A DNA stretch of 64,000 nt, from NCBI GenBank assembly GCA_964016885.1, contig OZ024740.1, positions 212,040,001 to 212,104,000 on the forward strand, written 5' to 3'. Both the position numbers and the translations under genes were made by a program. Shown here piece by piece: positions 6,596-45,341 of this stretch. Below the pieces are notes generated by a model. It did no database searches and was not told where the DNA came from. It saw nothing but the letters and a program-made list of their open reading frames with translations. The stretch is from Eledone cirrhosa (Eukaryota). How positions within the stretch are numbered: position 1 is the first letter of the stretch; the number at the start of each line of letters is the position of its first letter.

Positions 6596-7782
6596 ATGCG
6601 CGCGCGTGATTTTGTCGGCGTTCTTAAATTAGAGACATGTGTGTGTGTGTATGTGTGTGTGTGGCACTGATTGTAAGTTAGAGACATATATGTGTGTGTA
6701 TCACTTTCCCTCCTTTTACATGCACATACATTCACACAAACACACATACACATTGTGTGATGGACGGGTGGACAGAAGTCCCTCAAATTTATATACATGT
6801 GAATGGAGTTCTACTGAAGCAGTTAGAGAAGTTCAAGTATCTCGGGGCTGTGTTCATAAGTGATGGAAGGCAGGAGGCTGAATTAAGTGTAACAATTGCA
6901 AAAGCTGGTGCAGTAATGCGGCAGCTTCAGCATTCAGCAATCAGAAGAAGAGGGTAGGTGTAAAAGCCAAATTCGCTGTCTTCCTGGTATTCCTGATAGT
7001 TGAGAGATCACCACTCCGATATTTGCGTATAATACCAATATGCACACTACGTATGCCAGTAGAAAACCACACGCGGGCGGTTGTTCTGCTAGTAATGTCT
7101 AATGTTGAACTATTTCATTTAAATGGTAGCGTTGTTTGAATCTGTTCTTTTTACAAACGTACCTATCATGTAAACATTATTACAGGGTCGATAAAATAAA
7201 GTACCAGTAATGCTCTGGTTAATTGCTGGCCTTGTGCCAAACGTAGAAACAATTATTAATTTCAAGGGCGGTGGATTGGCAGCATCGGTAGAGGGTCGGA
7301 CGAAATGCTTTGCAGCATAGTGTTACAGCCCGTTACGGTCTGAGTTCAAATCCCGCCGAGGTTAACTTTGCCTTTTATCCTTACAGGGTCGATAAAATAA
7401 AGTACCAGTAATGCACTGGGATAATTGCTGGCCTTGTGCCAAAAGTAGAAACAATTATTAATTTCAACAAAAACATTTTGGCTAAAAGCAGCAATAATAA
7501 CAAATATGTTTGCTTCTATGCAGTTGCTTGACCTGTTGGAAATAGCAGCCAAATTTATTTTGGTCACATCTTGAATAGGGAAAGGACTCTTTGGGTTTAA
7601 TGCCAAGATGTGACCTAAAGAAATTCTTTTCATTTTAGCACACTATATTTCTTTTCGGAACTGAAAGGGGGCGTGTTCCGAAAAGAAATATATATTTGTA
7701 TTGAGAGATCCAAGTTTCAGTTTAACATTTTATTCGTAATCACACCTAACACGTGTTTCGTGAATCTATTATATATATATAT
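6596..7782. repeat. Local duplicated block, copy 2
   Basis: Matches 32-1525 with an internal deletion at an ATATT microhomology. Confidence 0.9.
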
Positions 7783-8099
7783 AGCTCTGGTTTATCCAAA
7801 CTATTGAGCCCTTTGCCACGAATTTCGAAGATTGTGTTTCGTTATTTCGTGAGCCGAAATTCCGATTCTCGATAATTTATTTGTATTTATCTCCAGTCTT
7901 TAGCTATTGACCAGTTAATTTTATTGATTTTTTAGTTGATCTTATTGACTGATAAATAGCTCATGTTAATTTTAACCCGTCTGTTGAGAACTCTAATTCG
8001 ATATGTGATATTTTGTATTTTTACAAATATATACACTGCCGAATTCATTCGAATAATTTAAGGAAAGTGAAGAATAAGAGCTTATGGAGGATAAGTATC

Positions 8100-8953: not shown

Positions 8954-9333
8954 CCTTTATCACCTTGACCGACCAGTCTGTCGGGCGCCCATCGGCGCCG
9001 CTGGTCACAGCACGTGCTATTTTAGCCATACGATGACGCCATCCCACTGGCTGGGTGGGAAGGCCGATATATATATATATATATATATAAATCAGGAAAG
9101 AAGATTGACATGGTTTGCTATACAAAAAAAGGTTTTTAATCTCATTGCTGACAATTGTTTCTCTGAACTGGTAGGTCTAGAGATCGCTATCCGCTTGTTT
9201 TCACGTTACTCGATCGCCAATACAAAATTATAACCAGTCAGTTCTGTTATTATTGTTCTAACTGAATGCCATTACTACTTCATATAGTAGCCTGTATATT
9301 CCTTTCATGCCTGTATATCCTCTTCATTCTCGC

Positions 9334-9443
9334 TTGCTCCGAAGAACTGACTGGTTATAATTTTGTATTGGCGATCGAGTAACGTGAAAACAAGCGGATA
9401 GCGATCTCTAGACCTACCAGTTCAGAGAAACAATTGTCAGCAA
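9334..9443 (+). ncRNA. Hammerhead-like motif with variant core (CCGAAGA); partial inverted copy ~9086-9248
   Basis: TTGCT-CCGAAGA-ACTG...ACCAGTT..-GAAA-CAATTG-TC-AGCAA. Confidence 0.55.
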
Positions 9444-9668
9444 TGAGATTAAAAACCTTTTTTTGTATAGCAAACCATGTCAATCTTCTTTCCTGATTTA
9501 TTATTACTCCAAGTGTTTACAACATAGGAATTACAGCATACTCGCAACATCACTATGAAAACGTCTTGTTGAGTCAAACCAAGCCAAGCGTTGATATCAT
9601 CCACTACCCGGAATACCATAACTGGACTACACCTAAGTGGACTGCATATAACTATTATTTGTTATCCC

Positions 9669-11089: not shown

Positions 11090-12060
11090 TTGCCTCCCGT
11101 ACTTTAAAGTTGTTATCGGCTTTTCGCAACACTCCACCTCAGTGAACGAGAGCCGCAACAAAACGTCGAGGTAAGCACTAACGTCCATTCTGCTATCCGG
11201 CCCGCCGCTGTCCGCGAAGAGCCGAGCGAAGTGATGCTGAAAAGCCGAACACATTTTCCCGGGATCGAGTAACATGCACCCGCTGTGGACCTCCCTGTCT
11301 ATGAAGCCTATCTAAGTCGATTACACAAATCACAAATTTGTGGTCCGTGTAGTTGACTATCTTGAATTGTGGGCAACCTATGCTAGAACTATCTACTTCT
11401 TTACAAAACACCCTATCTACGTACGATCTGGATGACCCATGAGGTTTATTCATGTCCACATTGGCACATTCGGGAAATCCAGTCGGTACCTCTCAGAAAG
11501 TTGGAAACGTCTGAACAGGTTTGCGAGGTTTAAAGAGCCACTAGCCTGAAAGCATCGCCTTTGCTTCTGTTCACGTCCAGCACCACCGGCTTACCTTCTG
11601 GGTCCAGGCCTTTCCGAAACAACAGTGCTACTCCGCCTCCCGATCCCGGCCGGCTTGAAGATGCGTACACATCGTAACCGTCGAAGACTGGTGCGAAGGC
11701 TTGTGCCTCGGAAATTCTTGCTGATGGCCACCACATCTATGTTTATTGACCTGAGGTCATTGAGCAGGTGGCCCTGCTTCCATGATGATACCAGGCTACG
11801 TGCATTTACACTGCCTATTCTGAGTAAGGCAATGTTGAAAAAGAGTGGGAAAATGGGGAAAGACCACTTCCCACAGTTCTTGTGGAGGAAGGACGGTTCT
11901 TCCGTCGTTCTGACTGGTTGTGGCCCTCTCCTGAATGATGTCTTTGTACATCCCCCTGGAAAGCGTTTGCTGGAAATCTTCGATGTCATTGAGGAATTTT
12001 TCTTTTAGGGTTGTATGGGTTTTCTGTGAGATAAGTGTTATTTATATGTCTGTAGGTGAA
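11090..12060 (-). mobile_element. Degraded Tx1-like element (ORF1 end + APE endonuclease fragments)
   Basis: LRIGSVNARSL, GGGVALLFRK, SYVDRVF, YTDHKFV, AFQHHFARLF; related to 60846-64000. Confidence 0.8.
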
Positions 12061-12161: not shown

Positions 12162-15100
12162 TTTCTTTATTAGCCACAAGGGCGTAACAAGAAAAGGGGA
12201 CAATACAAAGACATGCCGGGGATTTTACATACAGTCGTGTAAAAAATATAAAAACAAACAATTTCATCAATCGAAATCCCCAATAGGGGGTAAGCGCCAA
12301 AAATGGCTTGTTTAATACCCCGTCGATCGAACAACCCTCAACTCCAGGAGCGTGTTGTGCAAGTGCTCCTTTCTTCCTTTTGCTCTCTTCCTCAACCTAC
12401 AGGCTTATAAACAGAGAAGGCCCAATCACTCGGGCCATTTTCGCTTCATTCACCCACCTTTCAGTAAATTTACTGGGGTGCAGTGCCTCTCTCTCCACCC
12501 TGATTCTCCTTCTAAAGTGATACTTAAAGAAGGGAATCAATTGTTGTCCGCAGAGAAAGGCATCTGTCCTCAGTCCTCTCAACCTCGTCTACCATATAAC
12601 TTCTTTCACCATAGCCACCGTACAGAGGAAAGCCGCCTCTCTTTCGTTTTTGAAAGAGGCTGGCGGTTTGATCCTTACTATGGACTCGGCAGTCAACTGG
12701 ATTTGTCCCATACGCGACAGCAGTTGTTCTGCATAGTTCCACAGGTCGCTTACGCCCGGGCAGTGTACAATTGCGTGCAGAACTGTTTCAATGTCCTGCG
12801 CACATCTTGGACACGTCCTCTTGGAAGGATGACTGCCAGGGCGTCCGTGCCTGTAGATCTTGTCACGAACCGGTAGAGCTCCTCGGTAGCACTGCCAGGC
12901 CAGGGACCTCTGGAAGTTGTCCATAGGTCCCGGGCGGAAAGTCCTACCAAACAGACTGGTGAGCTCATCTTCTTCGACGCCCAGAGTCTCTCCGAGCACG
13001 TCGTCGCCCTTGTAACGTACAATCCCTCTATAGAATGTCGAAGTGGAGTCTCCACTGATTGCTGCGCCCGCTTGCCAGAGGACTGTGAGCGCCTGAGCCC
13101 ATTCAATGTGCCAGGCGCCCATCGTTTTCGGTCTTTTCTTCACCCAGGACTGCAGCTCCGTTAGCGAGACGAGCTGTGGGAAAGCCTGTCTCACAAACGG
13201 TGCCCACACCGGTTGGGGGTCGGTGAGGAATACCTGGAGATGCCGCAGCCTCAGCGCATGTTTGCGCATCATCAGCCACGGCATTCCCAGCCCTCTGTTG
13301 GAAGGGTGCTGACAGCAGACGGATCTCCTCACCAGCGGAGCCTGCTTCTTCCACAGAAATTAGAAGAGCATGCGTTCCATCTTGGCGAGGTGTTCACGGG
13401 GACACGGCACGACAGTCAAGCGGTAGTAGATGACGGACGCTATGAAAGTTTTCGCCACCTCCGATCGACATTTCAAGGACAGTTTGCACTCTGCCCACTT
13501 CTGAGTGAGTGCAAACACCTTGGCCGTGACCTCGTTCCAGTTTTTCTCCAACTGGAGGTCTGGACCGAACCAGAGCCCGAGCAATTTCACCGGTCCGTCC
13601 GTCTAGCGTCCAACGACGCTGTCGGATGTAATCGGTTTGCCTCTCCACGTACCGAGTTGCAAACCGACAGACATGTCTGGGTTTAATTTTGCTCCCGTCA
13701 GCGTTTCGTATTCTTTCAGTAAGTTGCCGATCACCCCGATTTCTGAGGTGCTCGACACCATTACCGTTACGTCGTCGGCATAAGCCGACGCCGCTTTGCG
13801 CAGTCCCGGTTCTAGGGGGATGCCCTGCAACAGCTCCAATTTCCGCAGTAGTGGCTCTAGAGTCAATACATACAGAATGGAGGAGAGAGGGCATCCCTGT
13901 CGAATGGAATGCGTGATTGCGAACGGCTCCGATAGGTAGCCATTCACCTTGACCCTCGAGCAGATGCTGGTGTGCATCGCCTCGATCCATCCTCTGAACA
14001 TGGGACCGAAACTGGCCGCCTTGAGAACCGCTTCCAAGTATCGATGGTCGACCCTATCGAATGCCTTAGACTGATCCAAGTTGATCAGAGCCCCACCGAA
14101 GCCGGGTTTACTACCCACCCTCTCTATGATGTATCGCATGAAGTGGAGGTTGTCGTGTATGGATCTGGTCGGGATTGCACACGTTTGCGCTTTCCCTACC
14201 AGTTTCTCGACGACAAGCGCCAGCCTCGTCACTAGCACCTTGGCCAAAATTTTTAACTCTGTGTTGAGCCTGTGTTTAACTCTTATGGGCCTGAAGTTGT
14301 TAATTTCGTCCACCTTGTTCTCGTCTTTCCTGATCAGCGTTACTACGCCCTTGCCTGCAGAACTGGGAATTCTCCCGTTCTGCTGCCAATTGCAGTAGAC
14401 GGCTTCGAGAACGCCAGAGAACAAGTCTGGCATGCCTATGTAAAATTCGTAGGGTAGACCATCTAGACCGGGTGACTTGCGTTTCCCGCAGCGGCCCAGA
14501 GCGTCCCGTACCTAAGTGTCCGTGATCGGTCTTTCGCAGAACTCGGCTTCCGTGTTCGAGAGACGCGGCAGGCCGTCGAGGTATGAACTAAAGTCCATTG
14601 CCCCGTTCGGCTCACCGTCGTTCTGCTCAAACAGTCGCGCAAAGTGCCGCTGAAAGGCCGCGCACATTTGCTTGGGGTCAAGATGCACGCGTCCGTTTTT
14701 GTCTTTCAAAGACCGAATCGTGGTCTTGTTGCCACTTTTTGCCTCCGCCACTCGGGCCCAGCTGACAGCTTTCGCTCCTTCGTTTCCTAGAGCACGTGTT
14801 TTGCTTCTGACCACGCAGCCTTCGTGTTTCGCATCGAAGAACTGGTCCAGTGCCGTTCTCGACGCTAACACTCTAGCCGCGTTGCCACTTCTAAGTGCCT
14901 CATCTACCTTGGCTACTAGTTCTCTTTCTATTCTGTTTCCTCTCCTCCTCCTTTTAAACAGTACGGAAACACTTCCGTAGTGTTTTCCTCGCTGGAGAAA
15001 ATCGACATTTGCTAGAATTTCCTTGAAAGAATCTTCTATATCTGCTTGATTAACAAATGTCGGCTTTCTTGACGAATTTAACACAGTCCTAAAAGTGACT

Positions 15101-15760
15101 GATCGGCGGTTTGTGTTTTCCTTTATTTCAAGGGGTGAGTTAATTCTAAACCCACCTCTTTCTTCGAAAGTTACACATTTTCTCCCTTGCTGGAGCATAT
15201 CTCTTGCGTTGGAGATATCAAGATTTATAAGATCTTGTTTCTTGTTCACTGTGTCAGCGAAAGACATTTTCTTTTTTTGTGTGGTGTTGCTGTTGATGAT
15301 GTTGTTATCTTTATTGGAAATCTCAGTTCCTTGTCGAGGTGAAACTTTATGTGTAGATGTATCTGTAGAGTTGTTGATGTCTTTTTCATGTGTATGTATG
15401 TCAATGGGTTTTTTTGCTGTGTTTTCCTGTGTGTTATTGTTATTTTCTTCCGCGGTAGAAATTGTAAAATTTTCAAATGTTAATATATTTTTTTCTTTTG
15501 TGACAGTTGTATCTATGGCGACGTCCATAGTAGCAGAAGCAGATGTGTTGCTCAAGTTATTTACTTTGTAAAATCTGATATTTTAAAACAAATTTTTAAA
15601 ATAAAATGTTCGCCCCTACAGGGGCGAAAAATGGAATTACCACCCTGCTGACAATTCAGCTTGGGGGTTAATCTACAAAGTGTTGTGTTTTTTCAAACAA
15701 TTAGATCGTTTTTTTGCATAGAAATTAACAAAAAAGCTTACCGGCGATGTTCCACACGTC
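12162..15760 (-). mobile_element. Tx1-like LINE A; both ends present, internal deletion fusing ORF1 N-half to post-endonuclease ORF2
   Basis: RT motifs LDQSKAFDRV, RQGCPLS, YADD; C-terminal CPRC..ETVLH..HC; in-frame fusion near 14945; several stops and frameshifts. Confidence 0.9.
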
Positions 15761-15772
15761 AGACAGAAAGAG

Positions 15773-17256
15773 AGAGGCAGACCGATGCCTTCCGATGGCG
15801 TCGTCGGACGCTGGACGGAAGGACCGGTAAAGCTGCTCGGGGTCTGGTTTGGTCCGGACCTCCAGGTGGAGAAGAACTGGAACGAAGTGACGGCCAAGGT
15901 ATTTTCACTCACCCAGAAGTGGGCCGAGTGCAAACTATCCTTGAAAGGTCGAGCGGAGGTGGCGAACACTTTTATAGCGTCCGCCATCTACTACCGCTTG
16001 ACCGTCGTGCCTTGTCCAGCCAAAACGCTCGCCAAAATGGAGCGCGCCCTCTTACGATTCCTTTGGAAGAGGCGGGCTACTTTGGTAAGAAGATCCATCT
16101 GCTGCCAACACCCTTCTAACGGAGGGCTGGGGATGCCGTGGTTGACGATGCGCAAACACGCGCTCAGACTGCGGCATCTCTACGTATTCCTCACCGGACA
16201 ACCGGTGTGGGCCCCGTTCGTGAGGCGAGCCTTCCCACGAATCGTCTCGCTGACCGAGCTGCAGTCCTGGGTCAAGCAGAGACCGAGGAAAATGGGCGAC
16301 TGGCACATCGAATGTGCTCAGGCGCTCACAGCCCTCTGGCAGGCGGACCCGGCGATCAGTGGAGACTCCACTTCGTCATTCTATAGAGGGTTGGTCCGCA
16401 GAAAGTGCGACGACGCGCTCGGTGAAACTCTAGGCGTCGAGGAAGATGAACTGGCCAGTCTGTTCGGTAGGACCTTCCGCCCGGGACCGATGGACAACTT
16501 CCAAAAGTCCCTGGCCTGGCAGTGCTACCGAGGAGCTCTACCAGTTCGAGACAAGCTCTACAGACATGGGCGCCCGGGCAGGGACCCTACAAAAAAGATC
16601 TGTCCGAGGTGCGTGCGAGACAAAGAAACCGTTGCGCACGCATTCATACACTGCCCGGGCGTCACTGACCTGTGGGACTATGTAGAACGACTATTGTCGC
16701 CGGTGGGACCAATCCAGTTGACCACCGAGTCCATTGTCATGATCAAACCGCCACCCTCCTTCAAAAACGAAGGAGAGGCGGTTTTCCTTTGTGTGATAGC
16801 TATGGCGAAAGAGGTTGTATGGTGGACAAGGTTGAAAGGGCTGAGGTCAGACACCTTTCTCTCCGGCCAACAACTGATTCTTTTTTTCAAATACCACTTT
16901 GGAAGAAGAATCAGGATGGAGAGAGAGGTGCTGTACCCCAGCAAGTTTTATGAAAGGTGGGTGAAAGTGGCGAGAATGGCCCGAGTGAATGGGCCTTCTC
17001 TCTATATCAGCCTGTAGGTTGAGGAAAAGGAGGAGGAGAGGAAAGGAGTACAAGCTCTTCGTACTCCTGGAGATGAGGGTTGCACATTTTTTTTTCGGGG
17101 GTATGTGTTACCCATATAAACTGTCTCCCTCTATTGGGGAAAATCGACTAACTTTTAAATTCCATCTGTGATAACATTTTACACGTTTTTATTGTATGTA
17201 ACCTTCCCCCTTTGTATTTGTCCCCTTCTTTTGTGCCCCTGTGGCTAATAAAGAAA
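15773..17256 (+). mobile_element. Tx1-like LINE B, 5'-truncated (ORF2 C-terminal 410 aa + 3'UTR)
   Basis: ORF 15785..17017 paralogous to A, D and E; ends AATAAAGAAA then (TCTA)n. Confidence 0.9.
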
Positions 17257-17275
17257 TATATCTATCTATCTATCA

Positions 17276-17610
17276 GACGTGTGTAACTTCGCGGAGAAGT
17301 TTCCGTTAATTTATGTAAGAAAAAAACGTGAGTTTTTAGTTAAATTTTATATCATTGTGTAACTTGACCACCCGTCTGAACTTTCAGGTGGTGGGTCAAC
17401 TCATTTTCGCCCCTATAGGGGCGGAATATCCATTTAAAAAATTTTTCTCCATCGAATCTTGGAAAAAATATTGTAAAATTTTGATTACGTTATGAACGCT
17501 GCGTGCAACGATAATGGTGGTGGAGAGGCGGTAAGACTACAAAGCTCGCAGTCAACAACTTCTTCTTCACTAGATACTATAGAGATGGAAAGACAGAATG
17601 AAAATGTAAA
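17276..17610 (+). mobile_element. 5' end (C') of a family-C Tx1 element, inverted relative to C
   Basis: Reverse complement of ~19553-19884 with several substitutions; ORF1 start MNAACNDNGGGEAVR. Confidence 0.9.
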
Positions 17611-19884
17611 AATGGCTACCACATCCAAACTGTGCGACCTGAGGTCGTTTAAGAGTTTGCCCTGTTTCCAGGGCATCCCCAGGCCGCGTACGTTCACACA
17701 TCCAATTCTTATATTGGCCATGTTGGTGCTGAAAAGTTAAAAGAGGAAAAGAGATCACTCACCCTTCGCCTCCTGGGGACCAGGCCGCACGATTTCCATG
17801 GGGGTGTTGGAGGGGTTGTCTGGATGGGTGGTGGTTTCCGGCGGGGTGGGGACGCAGATGTTTGGTGGGGTGGGGTCTGGTGGAATGGGGGTGTCTGGGG
17901 TGGGGAGACATTTGAGAAGGACGCGGTTGAGTGGTTTCACGCAGGAATTCCCCACATCCTTCTCAAATGTTTCTTTTAGGGACCTATAAGTTTGTATAGG
18001 GACCCTAATCAGTTTTAGGTTCAGTTTTTTGCTATTTTTTATAGAGTGGGCGAAAGTTTTCCCTTCGGTGAAAACCGAAGGGTCGTTCGTGATGGTCTCC
18101 ATTAGTGTTTTGTTTTCAGTGTTTATGTAAGTGTAAGTGTAATTTTCTTGTGTTGTGTTTGTTTTTATCTGTAGTTCTTGTGTGTGCTTTCGTTTTGTTG
18201 TAGGTATTTTGTTTTCAGGAGGTGGGGGTTTGGTTTGTGATATTTTTGTTGTTTGTGTTGGTGGTTGTATGTTTGTGGTAGTGTTTGCTGGGTTTTTGCT
18301 TTTGTGATGTCTTTTCTTTCTTTTCGAGCGATGGGGTTCTCCCTCGTCTTCACTGGGTGATGGCGAGATAGCCTCATCTGTTGTATCGTCTGTGTGATTG
18401 GGGAGGGGTATGTCTTGGGGAGCTGTTGTGTCTGTATGTGATTTTGCAGTGGTTTTAGGTGGAGTGGGGTTGGGTGGGACTGTGTTTGTTGTGGTTATTT
18501 TTGTGTGTTGGTGTTGTTGTTGTGGTGGTGTTGGTGGTTGTGTTGTTTTGATGGGTGTCGGCAGAAGAGCCTTTTTTTGGTTCATTAGTTTAGGACAGGA
18601 AGCCCTCAGGTGACCCCTGCTAAAGCAATGGTAACATGAAGGCCGCCTACCCTCAACCGAAAGGTTTATGTAGGTAAGTCCGTCCAGGAGTACACGCTGT
18701 GGGATCATAGCTATTCGCTCTGGGCTCATTTGCACCAGAACTTCAATGCTAGTCCCATTGAATACATCTCTGGGGGACTTTCCTACTGACAGTATTCTGT
18801 CTTCATCAAAATTGATGAAGCCGCACAGTATCCACCATATGTTCACCTTTGGTGTGACACTTGTGATTCTGATCTTTTGTGTCCTTTTTCCCATGTATGT
18901 AGGGAAAAAGGTGTACAGGTTGGATACAATTGGCGACACAGAGTAATTTTGGGCCGTCAATTGATCCTTCATCAGTACCGAAATACTCCCAAAAAGTTTG
19001 CTTCTTTGAATGAATGCAATATCATTCATTGAATCTTTGAAAACCAGTTCAATATCTTTCTGGGACAATTGGACTGGTTTTCGGGTAGAATTGGAAACTG
19101 TCCTAAAAACTATCGTTTTGAGAGCAGTTTCCTTGCGAATTTCTACCGGAGAATTGATGCTGAAAGCACCATTTTTTTCGAAGGTGACATATCTCTTAGC
19201 GTCCTTTAAAAGGTGTTCAGCATTTGTTATGTCGAGATATATCAATTGTTCTTTCTTTTGAACTTTCTCCGCAAAGGAGATTTTTGGTTTCTTTGTGGAA
19301 TCCGTATTGGTGGTGTTGTCATTATTGTTGTTATTCTTGTTGTTATTCTTGTTGTCACCGATGTTGGTATCATCCGTATTTTCCTTGGTGTTGTTGTTGT
19401 CTTTGATGCTGGTGTTATTGGCGTTGTCTTTATTTTTTTCTTTGTTGTTGTTATCATTGTTGCTTTTATCATCATTATTGGTTTTGCTGTTATTTTTGTT
19501 GTCATTGAGCTGTTTGGTGTCATTTGTGTTGTTTGGATGTGAATTCGTTTTTTTATTTTCATTTTGTCTTTCCATCTCTATAGTATCTAGTGAAGAAGAC
19601 GTTGTTGACTGCGAGCTTTGTAGTCTTACCGCCTCTCCACCACCATTATCGTTGGACGCAGCGTTCATAACGTAATCAAAATTTTACAATATTTTTTCGA
19701 AGATTCGATGGAGAAAAATTTTTTAAATGGATATTCCGCCCCTGAAGGGGCGAAAATGAGTTGACCCACCACCTGAAGGTCCAGACGGGTGGTCAAGTTA
19801 CACAATGATATAAAATTGAACTAAAAACTCACGTTTTTTCCTTACATAAATTAACGGAAACTTCTCCGCGAAGTGACACACGAC
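17611..19884 (-). mobile_element. Tx1-like LINE C, 3'-truncated ~37 codons into ORF2
   Basis: 5'UTR, intact ORF1, ORF2 start MANIRIGCVNVRGL at 17721. Confidence 0.9.
17755..19668 (-). CDS. ORF1 (Gag-like nucleic-acid-binding protein) of element C, 637 aa, intact
   Basis: Zinc knuckle CYHCFSRGHLRASC (CX2CX4HX4C), Asn-rich N-terminus, Pro/Thr-rich C-half. Confidence 0.85.
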   Translation of the reverse strand: MNAASNDNGGGEAVRLQSSQSTTSSSLDTIEMERQNENKKTNSHPNNTNDTKQLNDNKNNSKTNNDDKSNNDNNNKEKNKDNANNTSIKDNNNTKENTDDTNIGDNKNNNKNNNNNDNTTNTDSTKKPKISFAEKVQKKEQLIYLDITNAEHLLKDAKRYVTFEKNGAFSINSPVEIRKETALKTIVFRTVSNSTRKPVQLSQKDIELVFKDSMNDIAFIQRSKLFGSISVLMKDQLTAQNYSVSPIVSNLYTFFPTYMGKRTQKIRITSVTPKVNIWWILCGFINFDEDRILSVGKSPRDVFNGTSIEVLVQMSPERIAMIPQRVLLDGLTYINLSVEGRRPSCYHCFSRGHLRASCPKLMNQKKALLPTPIKTTQPPTPPQQQHQHTKITTTNTVPPNPTPPKTTAKSHTDTTAPQDIPLPNHTDDTTDEAISPSPSEDEGEPHRSKRKKRHHKSKNPANTTTNIQPPTQTTKISQTKPPPPENKIPTTKRKHTQELQIKTNTTQENYTYTYINTENKTLMETITNDPSVFTEGKTFAHSIKNSKKLNLKLIRVPIQTYRSLKETFEKDVGNSCVKPLNRVLLKCLPTPDTPIPPDPTPPNICVPTPPETTTHPDNPSNTPMEIVRPGPQEAKGE

Positions 19885-20126
19885 TGATAGATAGATAGAT
19901 AGATAGATAGATTTCTTTATTTACCATAAAGGCATAAAAAGAAGGGACAAATACAAAGGGGGAGTTTACGTGCAATCGAGTAAAAAGGATATAAAATGAA
20001 AATAATCGAAAATAACCTCAAAAGGGAGGGGACGTGATGGGGGTTGCACACACCCCCGAAAAAGTGTGCAATCCTTTGCCCGGGGAGTACATGGAGAAGG
20101 TGCTCCCCTCTCCTTCACTTTTTTAC

Positions 20127-23100
20127 CTACAGGATGGTATACAGAGAAGGCCCATTTACACGAGCCATTCTCGCCACTATCACCCACCTTTCAGAAAACT
20201 GCCTGTGGCCAAGCACCTCTCTCTCCATTCTTATCCTTCTTCCGAAGTGATATCGGAAGAAGTAGACCAGACTATGGCCAGAGAGGAAGTTGCCTGACCT
20301 CAGACCTTTCAATCGTGTCCAGCAAACAACCTCTTTCAACATGGCTATTACGCACAGAAAAACCCCCTTTGCTTCCTTTGTGAAGAGGGGAGGCGGTTTG
20401 ATTGTCATCACGGACTCGGCGGTCAATTGAATCGGCGCCACCCGCGACAGCAGTCGTTCGGCGTAGCCCCACAGATCAGCCACGCCCGGACATTGCACCA
20501 ATGCGTGCGCAACGGTTTCTTCGTGACGCACGCATCTAGGGAAAATCTTTTTTGAGGGATCCCTGCCCGGGCGCCCGTGTCTGTAGAGCCTCTCTCGAAC
20601 GGGTAGAGCCCCCCGGTAGCACTGCCAGGCTAGTGACTTCTGGAAGTTGTCCATTGGTCCCGGGCCGAAAGTCCTACCGAACAGTCTGGCCAGTTCGTCC
20701 TCTTCCATGTCCAGCGACTCTCCAAGGGTGTCATCGCCCCTGCTAGCCAACAGCCCTCTATAGAATGATGAGGTGGATTCTCCACCGATGGCCTGGCCCC
20801 CTTGCCAGAGAGCCCTGAGCGCCTGAGCACACTCAGTGTGCCAGTCTCCCAGTTTTCCGGATCTTTGCTTGACCCAGGACTGCAGCTCGGTGAGCGAGAC
20901 GAGTCTCGGAAAGGCTCGTTTCACGAACGGAGCCCACACCGGTTGACCAGTGAGGAATACCTGTAGGTGCCGTAGCCTTAATGCGTGCCTACGCATCATC
21001 AACCACGGCATCCCCAGCCCTCCTTTCGAAGGTTGTTGGCAGCAGATGGATCTTCTCACCATAGGAGGGCGCTTCTTCCAAAGAAATTGGAAGAGCATGC
21101 GTTCCATGGTGGTGAGTGTTTCCTTAGGGCAAGGCACGACAGTCAGGCGGTAGTAAGTGACGGACGCTATGTAAATGTTCGCCACCTCCGCCCGGCCTTT
21201 TAGGGACAGCCTACACTTGGCCCATTTCTGGGTTAGTGCAAACACCTTGTTCGTAACCTCGTCCCAGTTCTTTTCCACCTGGAGGTCCGGTCCAAACCAG
21301 ACCGCAAGCAACTTTACCGGGCCCTCCGTCCAGTGTCCGACGACACCGTCGGGAGGCATCGGTCTGCCTCTCCACGTTCTGAGTTGCAACCCGATGGATT
21401 TTTCCTGGTTCAGTTTCGCTCCTGACAACCTTTCGTAATCCTCCAGTAAGGTACCGATCGCCTCGATTTCCGAGTCGGTCGATACCATTACTGTTACGTC
21501 ATCGGCGTAGGCCGACACCGCTTTGCTCAATCCTGGTTCCAGGGGGATACCCTGCAACAACTCTAACTTCCTCAGTAAAGGCTCGAGAGTCAATACGTAC
21601 AGAAGGGAGGAGAGAGGGCACCCCTGTCGAATGGATCGTGTGATTTCGAACGGCTTCGAAAGGTAGCCGTTCACCTTGATCCTAGAACAGATGTGGTTGC
21701 TATGTAAGGCAGTGATCCAGCCTCTGAAAACAGGACCGAACCCAGCCGCCGCTAGCACCGCATCCAGGTAACCATGGTCGACCCTATCGAAGGCCTTAGA
21801 CTGATCCAAGTTGATCAGGGCCCCACCGAAGCCGGGTTTGTTGCCAACCCTCTCTATGATGTATCGCATGAGGTGGAGGTTATCGTGAATGGACCTGGAT
21901 GGGATAGCACATGTCTGCGCATCTCCCACCAGGCCACCCACGACAAGCGCCAACCTCTTTGCTAACACCTTGGCCAAAATCTTTAACTCTGTGTTTAGCA
22001 GGGTTATGGGCCGAAAATTATTTATACTATCCCCTTGTTCTCGTCCTTCCTCACCAGCGAGACTACGCCCTTGGCTACAGAACAAGGAATTCTCCCGTTC
22101 TGCTGCCAATTGCAGTAGACCGCTTCGAGGAGTTCGGAGAAGAAGACCGGCATTGCTAAATAAAATTCGTAAGGTATACCATCGAGACCTGGAGATTTGC
22201 GTCTGCTGCATTGGCTCAGCGCATCTCCGATCTCATCAGCCGAGATTGGTCCCTCGCAGGACTCTGCCTCTTCGCTCGAGAGACGCGGCAGGCCGTCGAG
22301 GTATGGACCGAAATCCACGTCCCCGCCCGGACCCTCGCATCCCCCGAATAATCGGGCAAAGTGCCTTTGAAAGGCCTCGCACATCTGCTTAGGCTCCCGG
22401 ATCACCCGTCCATCCTCGTCTTGCAACGACCGGATGGTTGATCGATTTCCACTCTTAGCTTCTGTCACGCGGGCCCAGCCAACGGCTTTGGCCCCCTCAT
22501 TACCTAGAGCACGTATTTTACTTCGAATGACGCAGCCTTCGTGCTTTGCATCGAAAAACTGGTTCAAGGCCGTCCTCGATGCCAGCACTCTGGCCACATC
22601 TTCGCTCTTGATTGCCTCTTCTAATTTACCTGTTAATTCTTTCTCGTTTCTATTCCTATCGGCAGCTAACATCTTGCTATAACTTATTGATTCTGTTCTA
22701 ATCTCTCTTTTGAGAGATGCCCACCATCGGTTGTTGACGATTGCACCCGTCAACCTCTCCTTAACTAATCTGCTAATCCGGTTTCTGTAAGTCTCTTTTG
22801 CCGGTAAAGACAAATTAAGTTTCCAGTAACCGGGACCCTGTTTATGTGTTTTCTCGAGGTTGACTATGCAGGTCACTAATTTGTGATCCGTATAGCCAAC
22901 CGTGTGCATTTCTGGACAGCTTAATATGTCCCTATCCTTACTTCTAACTAAGAATCTATCTAAGTACGATCTAGATTGACCACTGTGGTTTCTCCAAGTC
23001 CAGGTAGGCACAGTTGGAAAATCTAGTCGATATCTATCGACCAAGTTAAAACGGTCGAGTAACCCCTTGAGGCTGTTACACCCCCCTCTATTAGGACATG

Positions 23101-23562
23101 CTCCTGCATAGTCCCAACGTGCATCTAGGATGTCATTCCAATCCCCCGCTAGAAGCAGGGAACGCGACGTTCCCAGAAAAGTCTCCAAACGCTGGAAGAA
23201 GTCGGGCCGTTCAGCTCCGAAAGGGGAGTAGACGGCGACCAGTCTCAAGGCCGCACCTTCACTACTGCCAACGTCTAGCACCAACAAACGACCCTCCGGG
23301 TCCGAGTGCACAACCTGTACGGCAAGACCCAGGTGTTTTTGCAGCAGTACGACAACCCCACCCCACCTCCAGGTTGACAGAGAGATGCATGCACCTCAAA
23401 GTCATCGAAGGTAGGGGCCAGCTGCCGCACGACGCTGATCCGAGTTTCACAGATAACCATTACATTTATACCACATGACCTGAGGTCATTTAGAAGCTTT
23501 GCTTGCTTCCAAGTTGAGCCCAGGCCACGTGCATTCAAACATCCTACTCTTAACACATCCAT
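20127..23562 (-). pseudogene. ORF2 of D (APE endonuclease + reverse transcriptase), frameshifted near 23300 and 22030
   Basis: VGCLNARGL, ICETR, AGDWN, SYLDRFL, TDH; QGCPLS, YADD. Confidence 0.85.
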
Positions 23563-23596
23563 GTGGGCGGCAGAGCCAAAGGAGAGTGTAGAGACC

Positions 23597-25509
23597 TTAC
23601 CTTTCTGCTTCCCGGGGTTCGGGTCGCACGACTTCCATGGGGTCGGGGGTGTTGGGTGAAGGGGTGTCTTGTGGTGGTGTGGGGTCGTCAGTGTGTGGTG
23701 GGGTTGGGGTGTTTGGAGTTGTGTTGGGGAGGGGAAGGGGAGGGGGAAAGCTTTTTAGTAGGACGCGGTTTATGGGTTTGACAGAGGGTGGTCCTACGTC
23801 CTCCTTAAAATCCTTTTTTAGTTTTTGGTAGAGGTTCATTGGGATCATTATTAATTTTAAATGTGGGTAGTTTTCTGAAGAAACAAAGTTTACACCTTCG
23901 GTTTGTACCGAAGGATTATTGTTTATGAGTTCATTTAATTTATTATTGTTTCTGTTGATGTAAGTATAGTGTAATGTCTTTTTTTCGGATGGTGTGAGTG
24001 TTTCGAAGAGGGGAGGGGCAGGTTTGGTTTTGTTTGTTGCTGGATGGGTGTTTTGTGTTTTGTTGGATTGTGTTGACATTTGGGTGGGGGTTGTTTGGCC
24101 TTGTGTGTTTTGCACATGTTTTCTTTTTTTCCTTTTAATCTGTCTGAAGGACTCCGTTTCTTCCTCCGAATTCGTTGGGTTATCTTCAGTGTTGGAGGGA
24201 AGAGGTATGTTTGCTGGTAATGTTTCCGTGTTGGTTTTCTTTGTGGGGGAGATGGATGTCACTATGTTAGACTGTGTTGTGTGTTGTGGCTGCGGTGGTT
24301 GTGTTGTTTTATTGAGTGAGGGGTTGGGTGGGCCTGTATTTTGTTTTGGGGTAATGTGTTGTGACTGTTTGTGTTGTGGTGGTGGTGTAGTTTAACTGAG
24401 GGACGGGTTGGGTGGGACTGAGTTTTGTTGTTTGTTTATCTGTTGTGGTGGTGGTGGTGGAGCTGGTGTTGGTAGCAGGGTTTTCTTTTTGTTGAGTTGG
24501 GGACAAGCGGCCTTCAGGTGCCCTCTGCCTGCACAGATATGACAGGACGGCCTTCTCTCCTCCACGCTAATGTTTATATACCCGTGGCCCTCTAATAGGA
24601 TTCTGTCGGGTATTTGGGCGATACGTTCAGGCTTCATTTGCACTACCAGCTCTATACCTGTTCCACTGAACGCATTGCCTGTGGTTTTCCCAATGGAAAT
24701 CACGTTGTCATTCACTGGATCGATGAAGCCAGCTATGAGCCAGCAGTAGTCCACATCTGGCATCATTGCATCCAGCCATATGCGTTGAGTTCTTTTACCC
24801 ATATAAGATGGATAAAAGGTAAAATTTTTCGAACGAATCGGTGACAAAGCACATTTTTTGCCGCCGATTCGTTCTTCATAATAATTGCTAGGCGTCCATA
24901 CAGTCTGTCTTTTCTTATTAAAGTGGTTTCATTAAGTACTTCTGTGAGTACTGTTTTGATATCTGTTTGAGTTGGCTGTTCAGGTTTTTTAGAAGTGTTG
25001 TTGATGGTGCGGAACACGACCGTTCGACTTTCAATGTCTTTGGTGAGTTCTTGAGGCATTTTTACCGATAAAATACCATTATCTCCTTCACTTATGTATT
25101 GTTTGGCGTCTGTGATTCTTTGTGCCACATCTGAAATATTTTCAGGTATATATGTCAAAGATTTCTTTGTTGTTTGTGCAAATGAAATCTTGTTGGTGTT
25201 GACTTTGTCGTCTGCTTTGCTTTCTGTTATGATGTTGTTTTCAAATGTTATTTTTGTGTTTGTTGTGTCTTTGTTTGTGGTATTAATATTGTCATGCAAT
25301 TCTTCAAATTTTTTTTTTCGTTGTTGGAATCCATGTCCAGATTTGTGTTTTCGTCATTTTTCTCCGCAGATTCGTCTGTTTTTATTTTATTTTTTCCTTC
25401 CTTCTCTATGACGTTAGTTGGGAAGGAAGGGGGGGGGGACTAAAGCGTGCGAGCTTACAACTCTTACCGCTGTCCCCCCACCACTATTTTCGTTCGCTTC
25501 GTTTAACAT
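23597..25509 (-). pseudogene. ORF1 of D, frameshifted
   Basis: N-terminus homologous to C ORF1; CHICAGRGHLKAAC; C-terminus PMEVVRPEPREAER*. Confidence 0.8.
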
Positions 25510-26037
25510 TTCTGTCAGACGATTGAAATTTTTTTTGCCACAAAATTTTTAAAAACAGGTTTTTCACCCCTAGGAGGGGTAAAGATGAGCTGACCAACCG
25601 CCTGACAGTTAAGACGGGGGGGGGGGGGTCAAGCTACACATAAGTATCAAAATTAAATTTGAACTTACAAAATTTCCGCAATAAATTTGAACAAAACTTC
25701 TGCGCGAAGTGAATTACTTCTACGCTGTAGAACAGACGACAGCTAGATTATATAGATAGATAGATAGATAGATATGTTTCTTTTATTTGCCACCAGGGCA
25801 TCAAAAGTGGGACAAGTACAATGGGGGGAGTTTATAAAACAAGGCGTCCTCAATAAGGAGGAGGCAATAACAAAATATAAAAATAAAATAAAATATAACA
25901 GAATAAAATTTATAACAAAATCCTCAATAGAGAGGAGGCACCTTGGGGGGTCGCACACACCCCCGAAAAAGAGTGTGCAACCCTTTTCCTCAGGAGCACA
26001 GAGAAGGGGTGCTCCCTTGGTCTTTCATCTTCCTCAC

Positions 26038-29000
26038 CTATAGTCTGATGTAGAGTGAAGGCCCATTCACACGGGCCATTCTCGCCACTTTCACCCATCT
26101 TTCATAAAAACGGCTGGGGTGCAGCACCTCTCTCTCCATCCTGATCCTTCTTCCGAAATGATATCGGAAGAAACGAACCAGTTGTTGGCCAGAGAGAAAG
26201 GTGTCTGACCTCAGTCCTTTCAGACGCGTCCATCATACAACCTCTTTCGCCATGGCTATTACGCACAGAAACACCGCCTCTTCTTCGTTTTTGAAGAGGG
26301 GAGACGGCTTGATCGTTACAATAGACTCGGTGGTCAACCGGATAGGTCCCACCCTTGACAGCAGTTGTTCGACATAGCCCCACAGATCGGCAATGCCCGA
26401 GCAGTGTACCAATGCGTGTGCAACGGTTTCCTCGTCGCACACGCATCTGGGACAGATCTTTTTCGAGGGGTCCCTACCCGGGCGCCCGTGTCTGTAGAGG
26501 CTTTCTCGAATGGGCAGAGCCCTTCTGTAGCATTGCCAGGCCAGGGACCTCTGGAAGTTATCCATGGGTCCCGGACTGAATGTCTTACCGAACAGGTTGG
26601 CCAGTTCGTCTTCCTCCATGCCTAGGGCTTCTCCGAGGGCGTCGTCGCACCTGCTAACCACCAGCCCTCTATAGAATGACGAGGTGGATTCTCCACTGAC
26701 AGCCGGGTCCGCCTGCCAGAGAGCCGTGAGAGCCTGGGCACACTCGGTGTGCCAGGCGCCCAGTTTTCTCGGTCTTTGTTTGACCCAGGATTGCAGCTCG
26801 GTGAGTGAGACGAGTCTGGGAAAGGCTCGCCTCACAAACGGGGCCCACACCGGTTGACCGGAGAGGAATACCTGAAGGTGCTGTGGCCTTAATGCGTGTT
26901 TACGTATCATTAGCCACGGCATCCCCAGCCCTCCTTTCGAAGGGTGTTGACAGCAGATGGATCTCCTCACCATAGGAGCCCGCTTCTTCCAAAGGAATTG
27001 GAAGAGTGCGCGCTCCATTTTGGCTAGCGTTTCCCTTGGGCAAGGCACAACGGTCAGGAAGTAGTAGATGACGGACACTATATAAGTGTTCACCACCTCC
27101 GCCCGACCTTTCAGGGACAGTTTGCACTCGGCCCACTTCTGGGTCAGTGCAAACACCCTGTTCGTTACCTCACCCCAGTTCTTCTCCACCTGGAGGGCTG
27201 GTCCGAACCAGACCCCGAGCAACTTCACCGGGCCCTCCGTCCAGCGCCCGACGACACCATCGGAGGGCATCGATCTGCCCCTCCACGTGCCGAGTTGCAG
27301 ACCGATCGACTTGTCCCGGTTCAGCTTAGCCCCTGTAAACCTTTCGTACTCCTCCAGTAAGGTGCCGATCGCCCCGATTTCCGAGGCCGTCGACACCATT
27401 ACTGTTACGTCATCGGCGTAGGCTGACACCGCTTTCCGCAATCCCGATTCCAACGGGATGCCCTGCAACAACTCCAACTTCTGCAGCAGTGGCTCTAGAG
27501 TCATTACATACAGAAGGGAGGAGAGAGGGCACCCCTGTCGGATGGACCGCGCGATTTCGAACGGCTCCGAGAGGTAGCCGTTCACCTTGACCCTAGAGCA
27601 GATGCGGCTGCTGTGCATGGCAGGGATCCAGCCCCTGAAAACGGGTCCGAAGCCTGCCGCCGCTAGCACCGCATCCAGGTAACCATGGTCGACCCTATCG
27701 AATGCCTTAGATTGATCCAAGTTGATCAGGGCCCCACCAAAGCCGGGTTCGTTCCCAACCCTCTCTATGATGTATCGCATGAGGTGGAGGTTGTCGTGGA
27801 TGGACCTGGACGGGATAGCACATGTATGTCTGCGTATCTCTCACCAGGTTACCCACGACAAGCGCCAACCTCTTTGCTAGCACCTTGGCCAAAATCTGTA
27901 ACTCTGTATTTAGGCAGAGTTATGGGCCTGAAATTATTTATATCGTCCCCCTTGTTCTCATCCTTCCTCACTAGCGTGACTACGCCCTTGGTCACAGCAC
28001 AGGGAATTCTCCCGTTCTGTTGCCAGTTGCAGTAGACCGCCTCGAGGAGATCGGGGAACAAGTCCGGCATAGCTAGATATAGTTCGTATGGAAGACCATC
28101 GAGAACCGGGGATTTGCGTTTGCCGCATTGGCTCAGCACGTCATCTATCTCAGCGGCTGAAATCGGCTCCTCGCAGGACTTCGCCTCCCTGTCCGAGAGA
28201 CGCGGCAGCCCGTCGAGGTATGGACCGAAGTCCACATCCCCAACCGGCTTCCCGCCCCTTCCGAACAATCCGGCAAAGTGCTTTTGAAAAGCCTCGCACA
28301 TCTGCTTAGGTTCAAGGATCACCCGTCCTTCCTGGTCTCGCAAAGACCGGATAGTGGATCTGCTCCCTCTTTTTGGCTTCTGTCACGCGGGCCCAGCTAA
28401 CAACTTTGGTCCCCTCGTTTCCCAGAGCACGTATTTTGCTTCGGACGATGCAGCCTTCGTGTTTCGCGTCGAAGAACTGGCCCAGGGCCGTTCTCGAGGC
28501 TAGCACTCTGGCCACGTCGCCGCTTCTAATTGCCTCTTCTACACTATCTACCAACTCCCTTTCCTTCCTATTTCTATTTGAGGCTAACTCCTTACTAAAT
28601 TCTATAGAGACTACTCTAATCTCTCTTTTGAGAGATCCCCACCACCTGCTGTTGACGATGGCGCCCGTCAACCGCTCCTTAACTAAAGTGCTAATCCGGT
28701 CCCTGTAAGCCTTACTTGCCGGTAAGGACAAGTTGAGCTTCCCGTAACCGGGTCCTTGTCTATGAGTTCTGTCAAGGTTGACCATGCAGGTCACTAACTT
28801 GTGGTCTGAATAGCCAACCATGCGCATTTTTGGACAACTTAAAAAGTCATTATCCTTAATTCTAAATAAGAACCTATCTAGGTACGACCTAGATGATCCG
28901 CTACGATTTGCCCAAGTCCAGGTTGACGCAGTCGGAAAATCTAGTCGATATCTATCGGCCAGGTCAAATCGACCGATTAACCCTTTGAGGCTATTACACC

Positions 29001-29481
29001 CCTCTCTATCGGGACAGGCCCCTACGTAGTCCCAGCGTGCATCTAGGATACCATTCCAGTCCCCCACTAATAGCAAGGAGCGGGACGTCCCTAGAAAAGT
29101 CTCCAGACGATGGAAGAAGTCCGGCCGCATTGACCCGAAAGGGCCGTAGGCGGCTACCAACCTAAACGCTCCGCCTTTACCACTGCCAAGGTCCAGAACC
29201 ACTAGTCGACCCTCCGGGTCCAAATGTACCATCTGTGTTGCGAGACCCAGATGTTTTTGCAGCAGAACGACAACCCCACCCCCACCTCCGGGCTGACAGA
29301 GAGATGCGTGCATCTCAAAGTCATCAAAGGTGGGGGCCAGCTGTCGCACGTTGCTGATCCGGGCCTCGCAAATAACCATCACATCTATACGTTGTGACCT
29401 GAGGTCATTTAGAAGCATTGCTTGCTTCCAAGTTGAGCCCAGGCCACGCGCATTTAAACAGCCTACTCTTAGCATGGCCAT
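26038..29481 (-). pseudogene. ORF2 of E (APE + RT), frameshifted with an internal stop
   Basis: ORF pieces 28312..29505, 27849..28343, 26233..27780; ends GPSLYIRL*. Confidence 0.85.
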
Positions 29482-29505
29482 GTTGGTGGTGAAGAGAAAA
29501 GGCAC

Positions 29506-31101
29506 TTACCCCTCTGCGTCCCGGGTATCGGGCTGCACAATTTCCATTAGGGTGGGGTATGGGTTGTTGGGTGGGGTGGTGATTTGTGGAGGTGTAGGGG
29601 CATCAGTGTGTTGTGTGGTTGGGGAGTTTGGAGTTGTGAGGGTGTTTGGGGAGGGGTGGGGTAGTTTTCTAGGAGGACGCGGTTAATGGGCCCGACGCAG
29701 GGGGGGACCCACGTCCTCTTTAAAGTTGTTTTTTAAAGTTTTATAGTTGTCCTGTGGGGCCTTAATCATTTTGAGGTGGGGGAAATCCCCTGCCTGGGTG
29801 AAGTTAGGCCCTTGGGTTTTTATTAGATTGTTGTTGTACACAATGTTTAACAGTTTTTTGTTTCTTGTGTTTATGTATGTGTATGCATGTTTTTGTTTTT
29901 GTGTGGTGTTTTTTGTTTGCTGTTGTTGTGAGCTCTTTTGTGTTGGTGTCAGTGTTATGTTTTGGGGAGGGGTTGTTTTCATTTGTGTGTCTGAGGTGTG
30001 TTTTCTTTTTTTTTCTTTTGATTGTGTGGAAGTGCTCCTCTCGTCTGACGAAGAAACTAGGGTCATCTTCCGCGTTGGAAGGGAGGGGTATATTTTCGGG
30101 TTGTGTTTGCGGTGCGGGTGTTTTGGAAATTATTATTTTTTTTTTAGTGGGGGGGGATGGGTTGGACATTGTTTTGTTTTGGTTTGAGCTGTGGTGGTTG
30201 TTTTTGTAGTGGTAGTTGTGGTGATTGTGTTGGTTTTGCAGTTGTTGGTGGTGTAGGCAGGATTGGGGTTTTCTTATTAAGTTGGGGACAGACAGCCCTC
30301 AGGTGACCTCTGGTTCCGCAGAGGTAACACGAGGGCCGCCTACCCTCAACGGTAATGTTGATGAAAGTTTGATCATCCAGTATGACGCGTTCAGGGATCT
30401 GGGCGATCCTTTCGGGCCTCATTTGAACTACAAGTTCGAGGGTCGTTCCACTGAACGCGTCACCCGATGCCTTTCCCATGGACACCAGCGTGTCATCATC
30501 CAGGTCCAGGAAACCTGTCAAAACCCACCATATGTCCATAATCGGCAGGATGGTGTGGATTTTTATTTTTTGTCTTCTTCTACCCATGTACGTAGGGTAG
30601 AAGGTGTATGCGGTGGATGCGATTGGTTTGATGGACAGTTTCACTGCTGTGTCCCTGTCCTTCATGAGAATGGATAGACTCCCGTAGAGTCTATCCTTCT
30701 GAATGAAGGTGATGTCCTTCATGACGTCTTTTAAAACCAGCTCTATCTCACTCTGTGATGGTTGAGCTGGATTTTTGCTTTTATTCGAGATTGTCCTAAA
30801 CATGACAGTGTTTAGGAGTCTCTGGCTTTTTAGTTCGGGGGGGGGGGGGATGGACCGTGAATGAACCATTTTCCCCGTACACTATATATTTTTTGGCATC
30901 TGCCAGTAGCTCCTTCGCTTTGGTTATATCTACTGGCAGATAGTCGAGGGTTTTCCTTGCCGTCTCGGCGATGGAGAAATTTTTGTTTGTTTGTGTTGCT
31001 GTTGTAGTTGGTGTTGCTGTTGTAGTGACAGTGGCAGGGGGAAGCTGTAAGCTTATCTTCCCCTTTCCTCCTTCGAATTTTGGTGAAGATGCTTCAGCCA
31101 T
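29506..31101 (-). pseudogene. ORF1 of E, frameshifted (one shift in a G-run at ~30840)
   Basis: CYLCGTRGHLRAVC knuckle; C-terminus LMEIVQPDTRDAEG*. Confidence 0.8.
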
Positions 31102-31903
31102 TTTTATCAAAATAGGATTTTTCGAAATTTTTCGAAAGATTAAATTTTTACAACACTATTTCGCCTAAAGGCGTAGAATATTTTGAGAGACTGACCAGAT
31201 CAAAGTTTGACCTGGCAGTCTCTCTACAAAATGGTACAAAAATGAAAGTTTACAGTTCACAATTTAAAGATAAATTTAAACGAAACTTACCGAGCGAGCT
31301 CAGCACATGTGTCTATCCCAGAGAAAGAAGATAGATAGATAGATAGATAAAAGAAAAACAGAGATGATGCGTGTGTTTGTAGCTGTCGGTCGAATATATA
31401 TTACATGTAAACCAATAAGGCTTTTAAAAAAATATTACTCAATTGAGTAATATTTTTTTAAAAGCCTTTTGATGTTCTATTGAGAGAATCGATTTTACTC
31501 AATATATCGAATAATGTACACCATTTTACCAGGGGGAAAAATACTGGTCCCCCCACACACACATTCTCTCACACACACACACACATATATACACACACAC
31601 ACATACACACGCGTACATTAACATACAAAGAGACTTATACACACACACACACACACACACACACTTCTCCGTATAAGACAAAAGCTGAAAAATATCTTTT
31701 GACATGCTAAAATACCCCCCCACTCCTTACAGACACATTCCTACTGACCATCCCGCTACCACGAATTACTCTGCTACACACACACACACACACACACACA
31801 CACTTATCTTAATAGCCATTTGAACTGTCAACAGGTTGCTGTCCGCACACACATCCCTGCTAACCATTATCACAACATCGAACACTACTACTACACACAC
31901 ACA

Positions 31904-39839: not shown

Positions 39840-39886
<47 letters not shown>

Positions 39887-45293: not shown

Positions 45294-45341
<48 letters not shown>

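Follow-up and report, generated by a model that had tools for sequence, protein, structure and literature searches.

A 64,000-nt stretch of the Eledone cirrhosa genome (assembly GCA_964016885.1, contig OZ024740.1, positions 212,040,001 to 212,104,000 of the forward strand; hereafter the window) is repeat-rich eukaryotic DNA in which self-BLAST, lists of open reading frames (ORFs) and Pfam searches reveal related two-ORF long interspersed nuclear elements (LINEs), labelled A to H (Table 1). Several of them carry a strong splice donor at the stop codon of ORF1 and, at the end of ORF2, a weaker acceptor signal, a TAG followed by a stop that fits the phase of that donor. With confidence just short of even, we propose that the LINE splices the ORF1-end donor to the ORF2 TAG in part of its transcripts, which would give an ORF1-only mRNA, the unspliced RNA being the genome. 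Held slightly less firmly still is a joint reading in three parts: a Tx1-like lineage may have made its whole endonuclease/reverse transcriptase (RT) gene a regulated spliceosomal intron that ends on two stop codons; that intron may have slid by one base through compensating indels 3.5 kb apart, fixed on one branch; and the window families, together with a distant group of relatives (group Y below), may set the ratio of ORF1 to ORF2 protein (ORF1p:ORF2p) mainly by retained introns in the leader and at the ORF ends, converging on the strategy of Copia elements.

That the ORF1-end donor is a selected motif is well supported by its rank and its conservation. On the minus strand, C reads GCG AAG G/GT GAG TGA (a slash marks the splice boundary) with the first intron base at 17762, so the phase-1 donor overlapping a TGA described in a first-pass annotation of this DNA was confirmed in the sequence. 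In all three elements retaining the site, the ORF1-end donor is the top-scoring GT (first of 78 in C, of 290 in D and of 279 in E); splice scores here and below come from an approximate generic matrix, which itself counts against the proposal. Of the 5832 stop triplets in the window, 32 have a donor score of at least 9.5 within 6 nt, as do 7 of 811 on the sense strands of the elements; both counts include the real sites, three in the window. The GTRAG motif is retained despite a one-base frame shift and an ORF1 DNA identity of only ~51-56%.

At the other end of the putative intron, TAG/G occurs at five of the six ORF2 ends, with phase-matched stops. Both the cctgTAG/GTTGAG earlier read in A (12397) and B (17017) and the pairing of phase-2 donors with G-TAA or G-TGA after the TAG in D and E are indeed present. 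When the three donors were virtually joined to the six ORF2 ends and the 18 joins translated, all eight phase-matched joins ended right after the junction codon; none of the seven cross-phase joins stopped at the junction, and 27-50 amino acids (aa) were added. As background, a stop follows AG/G directly at 17 of 442 sites in phase 1 and at 13 of 442 in phase 2. The gap-free spliced junctions would read AAG G/GT TGA, GAG GG/G TGA and GAA AG/G TAA. Three further cases were set aside. The internal deletion in A takes out the 3' half of ORF1, the donor and the endonuclease, so that A contributes no phase pair; F belongs to the D family at 98% and is therefore not an independent family; and the relic junction near 11800 does hold the donor-like motif that had been reported, yet its ORF1 frame is not fixable, so that no phase can be assigned and it was dropped as phase evidence.

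In the proposed mechanism, one transcript of an L1/Tx1-type LINE would yield two RNAs. The unspliced RNA would encode both ORFs and serve as the template for retrotransposition, so that genomic copies would retain the intron. In the other, the spliceosome would link the ORF1-stop donor with the AG in the ORF2 TAG, excising all of ORF2 (~3.47 kb) and producing an ORF1-only mRNA with the element's own 3' untranslated region (UTR) and AATAAA. The first bases past the acceptor would restore the ORF1 stop (E-A-K-G-stop, E-A-E-R-stop and D-A-E-G-stop), so that ORF1p would be identical, or one residue shorter, whichever RNA it came from. A strong donor combined with a weak acceptor would lead to partial splicing, with ORF1p in excess of ORF2p.

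The phase-1 case depends on pairing C, which is broken off early in ORF2, with an A/B-type 3' end, as the first-pass annotation had inferred. For B this pairing found support. The ORF1 quartet groups A with C and D with E (27:10:8 informative sites), the ORF2 quartet groups A with B and D with E (56:22:12, with the same grouping in five of five windows of 250 columns), and pairwise identities follow a nearly identical rank order in the two ORFs; B thus occupies in the ORF2 tree the place that C has in the ORF1 tree. The layout would also fit a single deletion-inversion-deletion in an array E-D-C-C'-...-A that made B the 3' end of C. By inspection, an 11-nt word at the C/C' junction, CACATCCAAAC, is common to the 5' sequence of C and the reverse strand of the C ORF2 start, and the B/A junction falls within a run of AG beside the 5' end of A. 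It is therefore probable that B is an inverted 3' end, either of C or of a C-family element. Counted against the pairing are the leader sites, which group C with D (14 vs 5 vs 5) and make recombination possible, a 3' UTR quartet that favours no grouping clearly (13:9:7 sites), and the fact that C and B share no overlapping sequence. With G as the root, the ORF2 tree takes the form (A,(B,(E,(D,F)))) and gives the B node support of 90/94. This rooting makes the GTTGAG end ancestral and places both one-base changes on the single D/E branch, which would have gained one G before the donor and lost one T after the acceptor, moving from phase 1 (C/B and A) to phase 2.

The acceptor is the weak link of the proposal: its scores are mediocre, another AG competes with it, the H end does not fit and distant relatives do not conserve it. 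Several results at this end weigh against it. Among all AGs, the TAG acceptor ranks 24th of 256 in A, 12th of 96 in B, 23rd of 362 in D, 89th of 350 in E and 6th of 107 in F, and in A, B and E it is outranked by another AG, 7 nt upstream. Hence the TAG/G that had been put forward as acceptor is present in the sequence, but is mediocre and, in B, outcompeted by the CAG 7 nt upstream. Spliced from the C donor, the upstream AG would add 52 aa (B) or 29 aa (A); from the phase-2 donors, it would run into ORF2's own TAG and add 1 aa. The H end gave no junction stop with any of the three donors (11, 34 and 34 aa added) and was counted as a miss. No clear conserved branch point was found by inspection. 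The ORF2 stop lies at the same residue in 7 of the 26 homologues with a recognisable C-terminus (123 examined), some of them only ~38% identical, so that the position of the TAG needs no splicing to explain it; the pyrimidine-coded residues at the ORF2 end are also conserved at the protein level. All six ORF2 ends (A, B, D, E, 46965 and 59079) do use TAG, as had been observed, F not being independent; however, a third-position G is kept in all of A, B, D and E at 9 of 36 conserved ORF2 K/E/Q control codons free of any splice constraint, which makes the shared TAG weak evidence. Finally, no ORF1 end, whether of the 3 in the window or of the 23 in group Y, joins a 3' UTR as an ORF1-only spliced copy would, the group Y loci having been fetched by ORF2 and thus being biased against detecting such copies. 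On the other side, A, B, D, E and F are all rich in pyrimidines over the 20 nt before the TAG (top 2-7%) and rich in purines over the 20 nt after it (top 0.2-1.6%); at the H end the values are 27% and 7%, respectively. Pyrimidines upstream and purines downstream are the arrangement of a weak acceptor helped by an enhancer.

The earlier observation is thus partly confirmed and its interpretation partly supported. In its extension to A, B and C, the ORF2-intron model retains a robust donor and eight of eight phase-matched joins; it loses A, which has no donor, misses H, and comes down to one phase change, the covariation being a single evolutionary event and not three families, which also diminishes the case for splicing to the TAG.

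A genome scan for relatives returned 19 loci (L001-L019) in two groups, arranged in tandem arrays and all from one metagenome-assembled genome (MAG), CAXXMW01. In this bacterial MAG (CAXXMW010000002.1-17.1), at least nine contigs hold tandem LINE arrays of eukaryote type whose ORFs are intact, and they are probably host DNA binned by mistake. Group Y (L003-L019), with 36-37% identity in ORF2, reads GAG TAA G/GTAAGT at all 23 ORF1 ends seen, a count from overlapping loci and hence from fewer copies; in L008 this donor is the best of 419 GT. As the stop is upstream of the donor, a phase match is unneeded in group Y, and none was seen. Group X (L001-L002) has 40% identity; its ORF2 ends in TAA and is followed 41 nt later by CAG/GTAAGT. 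Four results from these groups tell against the proposed splice. The ORF1-end donor is absent from group X. The ORF2 of group Y ends in TAG/G in 14 of 15 loci (TCG in L019), with an acceptor score of only 2.6. Seven of 15 Y-like proteins read through the TAG to a stop overlapping a GTAAGT 15 nt on. A GTAAGT donor follows ORF2 in 15 of 15 Y loci (15 nt past the TAG) and 2 of 2 X loci, with scores of 7.5-12.9 in the two groups and acceptor-like sites ~180-400 nt further, so that a 3' UTR intron is possible in all 17. The relatives therefore back the ORF1-end donor in one of two groups and do not back the ORF2 stop as a general acceptor.

Separately, the second best donor of L001 (5515) lies ~220 nt into ORF2, and its best acceptor (2049; ~8600 in the next unit) 162 nt before the ORF2 stop. 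These sites could remove most of ORF2, a post hoc suggestion from one family. At the protein level, the C ORF1 had no match at E<=0.001 in a set of 5.8 billion proteins; an unindexed search gave 109 matches, only five of which included the C-terminal domain; a profile made from these five added none. Among these five full-length homologues, chosen by eye from the 109, P0004 ends in GKS-stop, P0005 in GK-stop and P0019 in W-stop. All three ends are compatible, as protein sequences, with an overlapping donor, GKS and GK being what a phase-1 GTAAGT would encode; the C-termini of P0003 and P0022 are incompatible with one.

The donors after ORF2 point to the most serious alternative, that the ORF1-end donor is functional and its partner is not the ORF2 TAG. 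The TAG/GTRAG of D and E would then be a second donor, and the match between C and B a coincidence on one branch; the acceptor might be the AG 7 nt upstream, a site in the 3' UTR or the leader of the next array element, or the donor might bind U1 without splicing, e.g. suppressing premature polyadenylation. In keeping with this, TAG/GTGAGG in E is the second best donor of 279, the stop that GTRA always holds at +2 accounts for D and E without further assumptions, and the leader holds the best acceptors of A, C and E and the second best of D. However, A and B read GTTGAG, with a donor score of 0.1, and the rooted tree makes exactly this end ancestral; a post-ORF2 donor leaves the match of GT TGA with the phase of C unexplained, and inspection found no acceptor common to the 3' UTRs of A, B, D and E. 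We regard this alternative as less likely than splicing to the TAG. Improbable is the explanation in which neither site functions, ancestral stop contexts having been inherited while chance indels built up in a purine run prone to them. In its favour, the homology of all window elements means that motifs are shared by descent, the distance from TAG to hairpin varies from 20 to 27 nt by inspection, 9 of 36 control codons keep their third-position G as noted above, and the pattern was found post hoc; but the donor ranks first in C, D and E and also in a 37%-identical group where it sits outside the stop codon, against a background donor rate of ~0.5% per stop. Slimmest of all is the chance that the 3' motif is an RNA structure for template recognition with incidental downstream stops, CC-TGTA-GG closing a small C-UNNA-G loop like that of the leader hairpin and the pyrimidine run pairing with the purine run, since, despite a TAG in or beside a hairpin loop at six of six ends in minimum free energy folds and the same CC-TGTA-GG core in the A leader hairpin, a conserved hairpin over the TAG received no significant support (z-scores of -1.42 to +0.77; consensus fold of -2.26 kcal/mol; a double change in 1 of 11 pairs) and the ORF1-end donor would be left unexplained.

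Besides the candidate sites at the ORF ends, the leaders contain splice-like signals. A YAG/G in the loop of the conserved leader hairpin outscores every other acceptor in A, C and E and all but one in D, with GTRAG donors upstream; some group Y subfamilies have similar signals in their leaders. The candidate donor/acceptor positions are 15741/15616 in A, 19845 or 19832/19742 in C, 25668/25570 in D and 31290/31165 in E, all on the minus strand, and ~60867-60990 on the plus strand in G. Compared with Markov-resampled leaders, P values were 0.02-0.28 for acceptors and 0.04-0.44 for donors. A retained 5' UTR intron of ~90-125 nt is possible, the signals being only suggestive. Two adjacent stem-loops in the leaders of A, C, C', D, E and G keep their shape with differing sequences, e.g. 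TTCGCCCC-TGTA-GGGGCGAA in A and CGCC-TTTA-GGCG in E. Another good acceptor, TTTTAACTTTTCAG/CACCAACATG, ends the inter-ORF spacer of C (17729, minus strand; rank 3 of 113), 34 nt past the donor and right before the ORF2 ATG; its AG is missing in D and E.

By ORF and domain layout, the elements are two-ORF LINEs of the L1/Tx1 type with an apurinic/apyrimidinic endonuclease (APE) and an RT; the tree built here covers the window elements and the relatives above. Pfam searches placed an APE-type endonuclease (PF03372) N-terminally in ORF2 of D (5e-06) and E (6e-08), an RT (PF00078) in A, D, E, F and G, and zf-RVT (PF13966) C-terminal to the RT in A, B, D, E and F, four of these five under the curated cut-off. 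No Pfam match was obtained for the ORF1 pieces, in which the CCHC knuckle CxxCxxxGHxxxxC was read directly in C, D and E. Self-BLAST sets G, H and the relic near 11800 apart as a more distant group. Among proteins with a name, the nearest to ORF2 come from two octopods, Argonauta hians (60%) and Octopus sinensis (44%). On the minus strand, E, D and C follow head to tail with (TATC)n between them, and beyond C lie B and C' on the plus strand and then A on the minus strand. The (TATC)n repeat stands after A, B, D and E and before C, C', D and E; it is found at four of six 3' ends, F ending in a TA-rich run and H in (ATC/ATT)n. The window elements thus show the preference for repetitive targets that is a trait of the Tx1 clade. 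Rfam gave no matches in the window, L001, L004 or L008, and hence no sign of a small nuclear RNA, tRNA or rRNA target. Neither A nor G has its internal deletions at GT-AG sites, as judged by inspection.

Table 1 Elements of the window and the candidate splice sites of their ORF ends
Feature	Position	Strand	Description
Element A	12162-15762	-	Both ends kept; internal deletion fuses N-terminal part of ORF1 to post-endonuclease ORF2
Element B	15775-17257	+	Last 1.25 kb of ORF2 without stops, 3' UTR, AATAAA, then (TATC)n
C'	17276-17610	+	5' end of a second C-family copy, 96% identical to C; tandem after B, tail-to-tail with C
Element C	17612-19886	-	Leader, unbroken ORF1, pyrimidine-rich spacer, first ~110 nt of ORF2, then broken off
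C ORF1	ATG 19668, stop 17757-17755	-	CCHC knuckle CYHCFSRGHLRASC
C ORF2 start	ATG 17721	-	
Element D	19912-25712	-	Full length, frameshifted
Element E	25775-31312	-	Full length, frameshifted
Element F	45472-47180	+	5'-truncated D-family copy, 98% identical to D 3' end
Element H	58607-59326	+	Degraded 3' end of a more distant family
Element G	60845-64000	+	Two internal deletions (ORF1, endonuclease), no donor region; runs past window end
Relic ORF1/ORF2 junction	11780-11960	-	G/H-like group; TGGGAAGT at 11873-11866, upstream of decayed ORF2 start
C donor	17755-17766	-	AAGG/GTGAGT; phase 1, overlaps TGA stop
D donor	23600	-	AAG/GTAAGG; phase 2
E donor	29509	-	GGG/GTAAGT; phase 2
A ORF2 end	12374-12421 (TAG ends 12397)	-	cctgTAG/GT TGA; AAG 7 nt upstream
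B ORF2 end	16993-17040 (TAG ends 17017)	+	Pyrimidine run, competing CAG (ends 17010), cctgTAG/GT TGA, purine-rich run
D ORF2 end	20127	-	TAG/G TAA; putative intron 3474 nt
E ORF2 end	26038	-	TAG/G TGA; putative intron 3472 nt
F ORF2 end	46965	+	TAG/G TAA
H ORF2 end	59079	+	TAG/ATTGG; no junction stop

Several repeats lie elsewhere in the window. A palindrome with 695-nt arms and no spacer (38458-39847) is among the perfect or near-perfect inverted repeats; another pair, with 649-nt arms (42746-43394 and 44649-45297), flanks one ORF, which we take to be GIY-YIG-like, and shorter pairs lie at 9087-9245 and 9343-9501 and at 40230-40341 and 40740-40851. They are either Penelope-like ends or assembly artefacts. 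A duplication of ~1.2 kb (34-1530 and 6597-7783) is 98-99% identical.

Among known systems, non-LTR (long terminal repeat) elements of the Tx1 clade in the L1 group, such as Kibi and Koshi, use microsatellite targets (PMC4494074), and L1-Tx1 families are reported in Octopus vulgaris, where 80 are counted (PMC13282606). Such elements resemble the window LINEs in having two ORFs, an ORF2 with APE endonuclease, RT and zf-RVT, an ORF1 with CCHC, microsatellite insertion and a 3' AATAAA, and differ from them in the (TATC)n target with tandem arrays seen here. The closest parallel for the proposed splice comes from Ty1/Copia elements, whose spliced subgenomic GAG mRNA is described for Drosophila and Arabidopsis (PMC7197481, citing Yoshioka 1990, Chang 2013 and Oberlin 2017). 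In that account, as proposed here, the spliced RNA provides the structural protein only and the unspliced RNA the enzymes and the genome. However, Copia is an LTR element with one GAG-POL ORF and RNA data, whereas the present elements are non-LTR, with separate ORFs and both predicted splice sites on stop codons. The Copia-like trait of a strong donor at the end of the structural ORF ranks first in C, D, E and group Y and is absent in X. A Copia-like ORF1-only subgenomic splice in a LINE is plausible, at about even odds.

Human L1 also produces spliced RNAs, and the resulting SpIREs, with deletions in the 5' UTR or the 5' UTR and ORF1, harm retrotransposition and are called dead ends (PMC5860796). 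Donors and acceptors in a LINE, some in the 5' UTR, are thus common to both, functional in L1 and predicted here; unlike the splice proposed for the window, the L1 cases in these passages include none in which ORF2 is excised cleanly and the ORF1 stop kept. HAL1 (half-L1) elements are ORF1-only derivatives of L1, for which the cited text gives no splicing origin (PMC5753468). A retrotransposed spliced RNA would resemble them, being ORF1-only with the 3' end of its parent, and the difference is that no such copy occurs among the ORF1 ends counted above. The marker introns of DIRS-1 were engineered and are not useful here (PMC7192593), and those of TART are described in antisense RNA only (PMC1636488); neither Tx1 nor splicing is mentioned in the passages of PMC9115989. 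Among the titles and abstract openings listed in a literature search, none describes a LINE whose ORF2 is an intron or is bounded by splice signals; as repeat-database annotations and the majority of subscription papers lay outside its scope, this is limited evidence of novelty.

In the usual view, a LINE translates a single bicistronic RNA into ORF1p and a much smaller amount of ORF2p. If splicing from the ORF1-end donor to the ORF2 TAG does take place, it would represent a second way for a LINE to set the ORF1p:ORF2p ratio, a control point for host splicing factors and a route to ORF1-only (HAL1-like) elements, and the change on the D/E branch would be a small natural case of intron sliding. 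Even with a wrong acceptor, the top-ranking donor at the end of ORF1 in two distant groups would need explaining.

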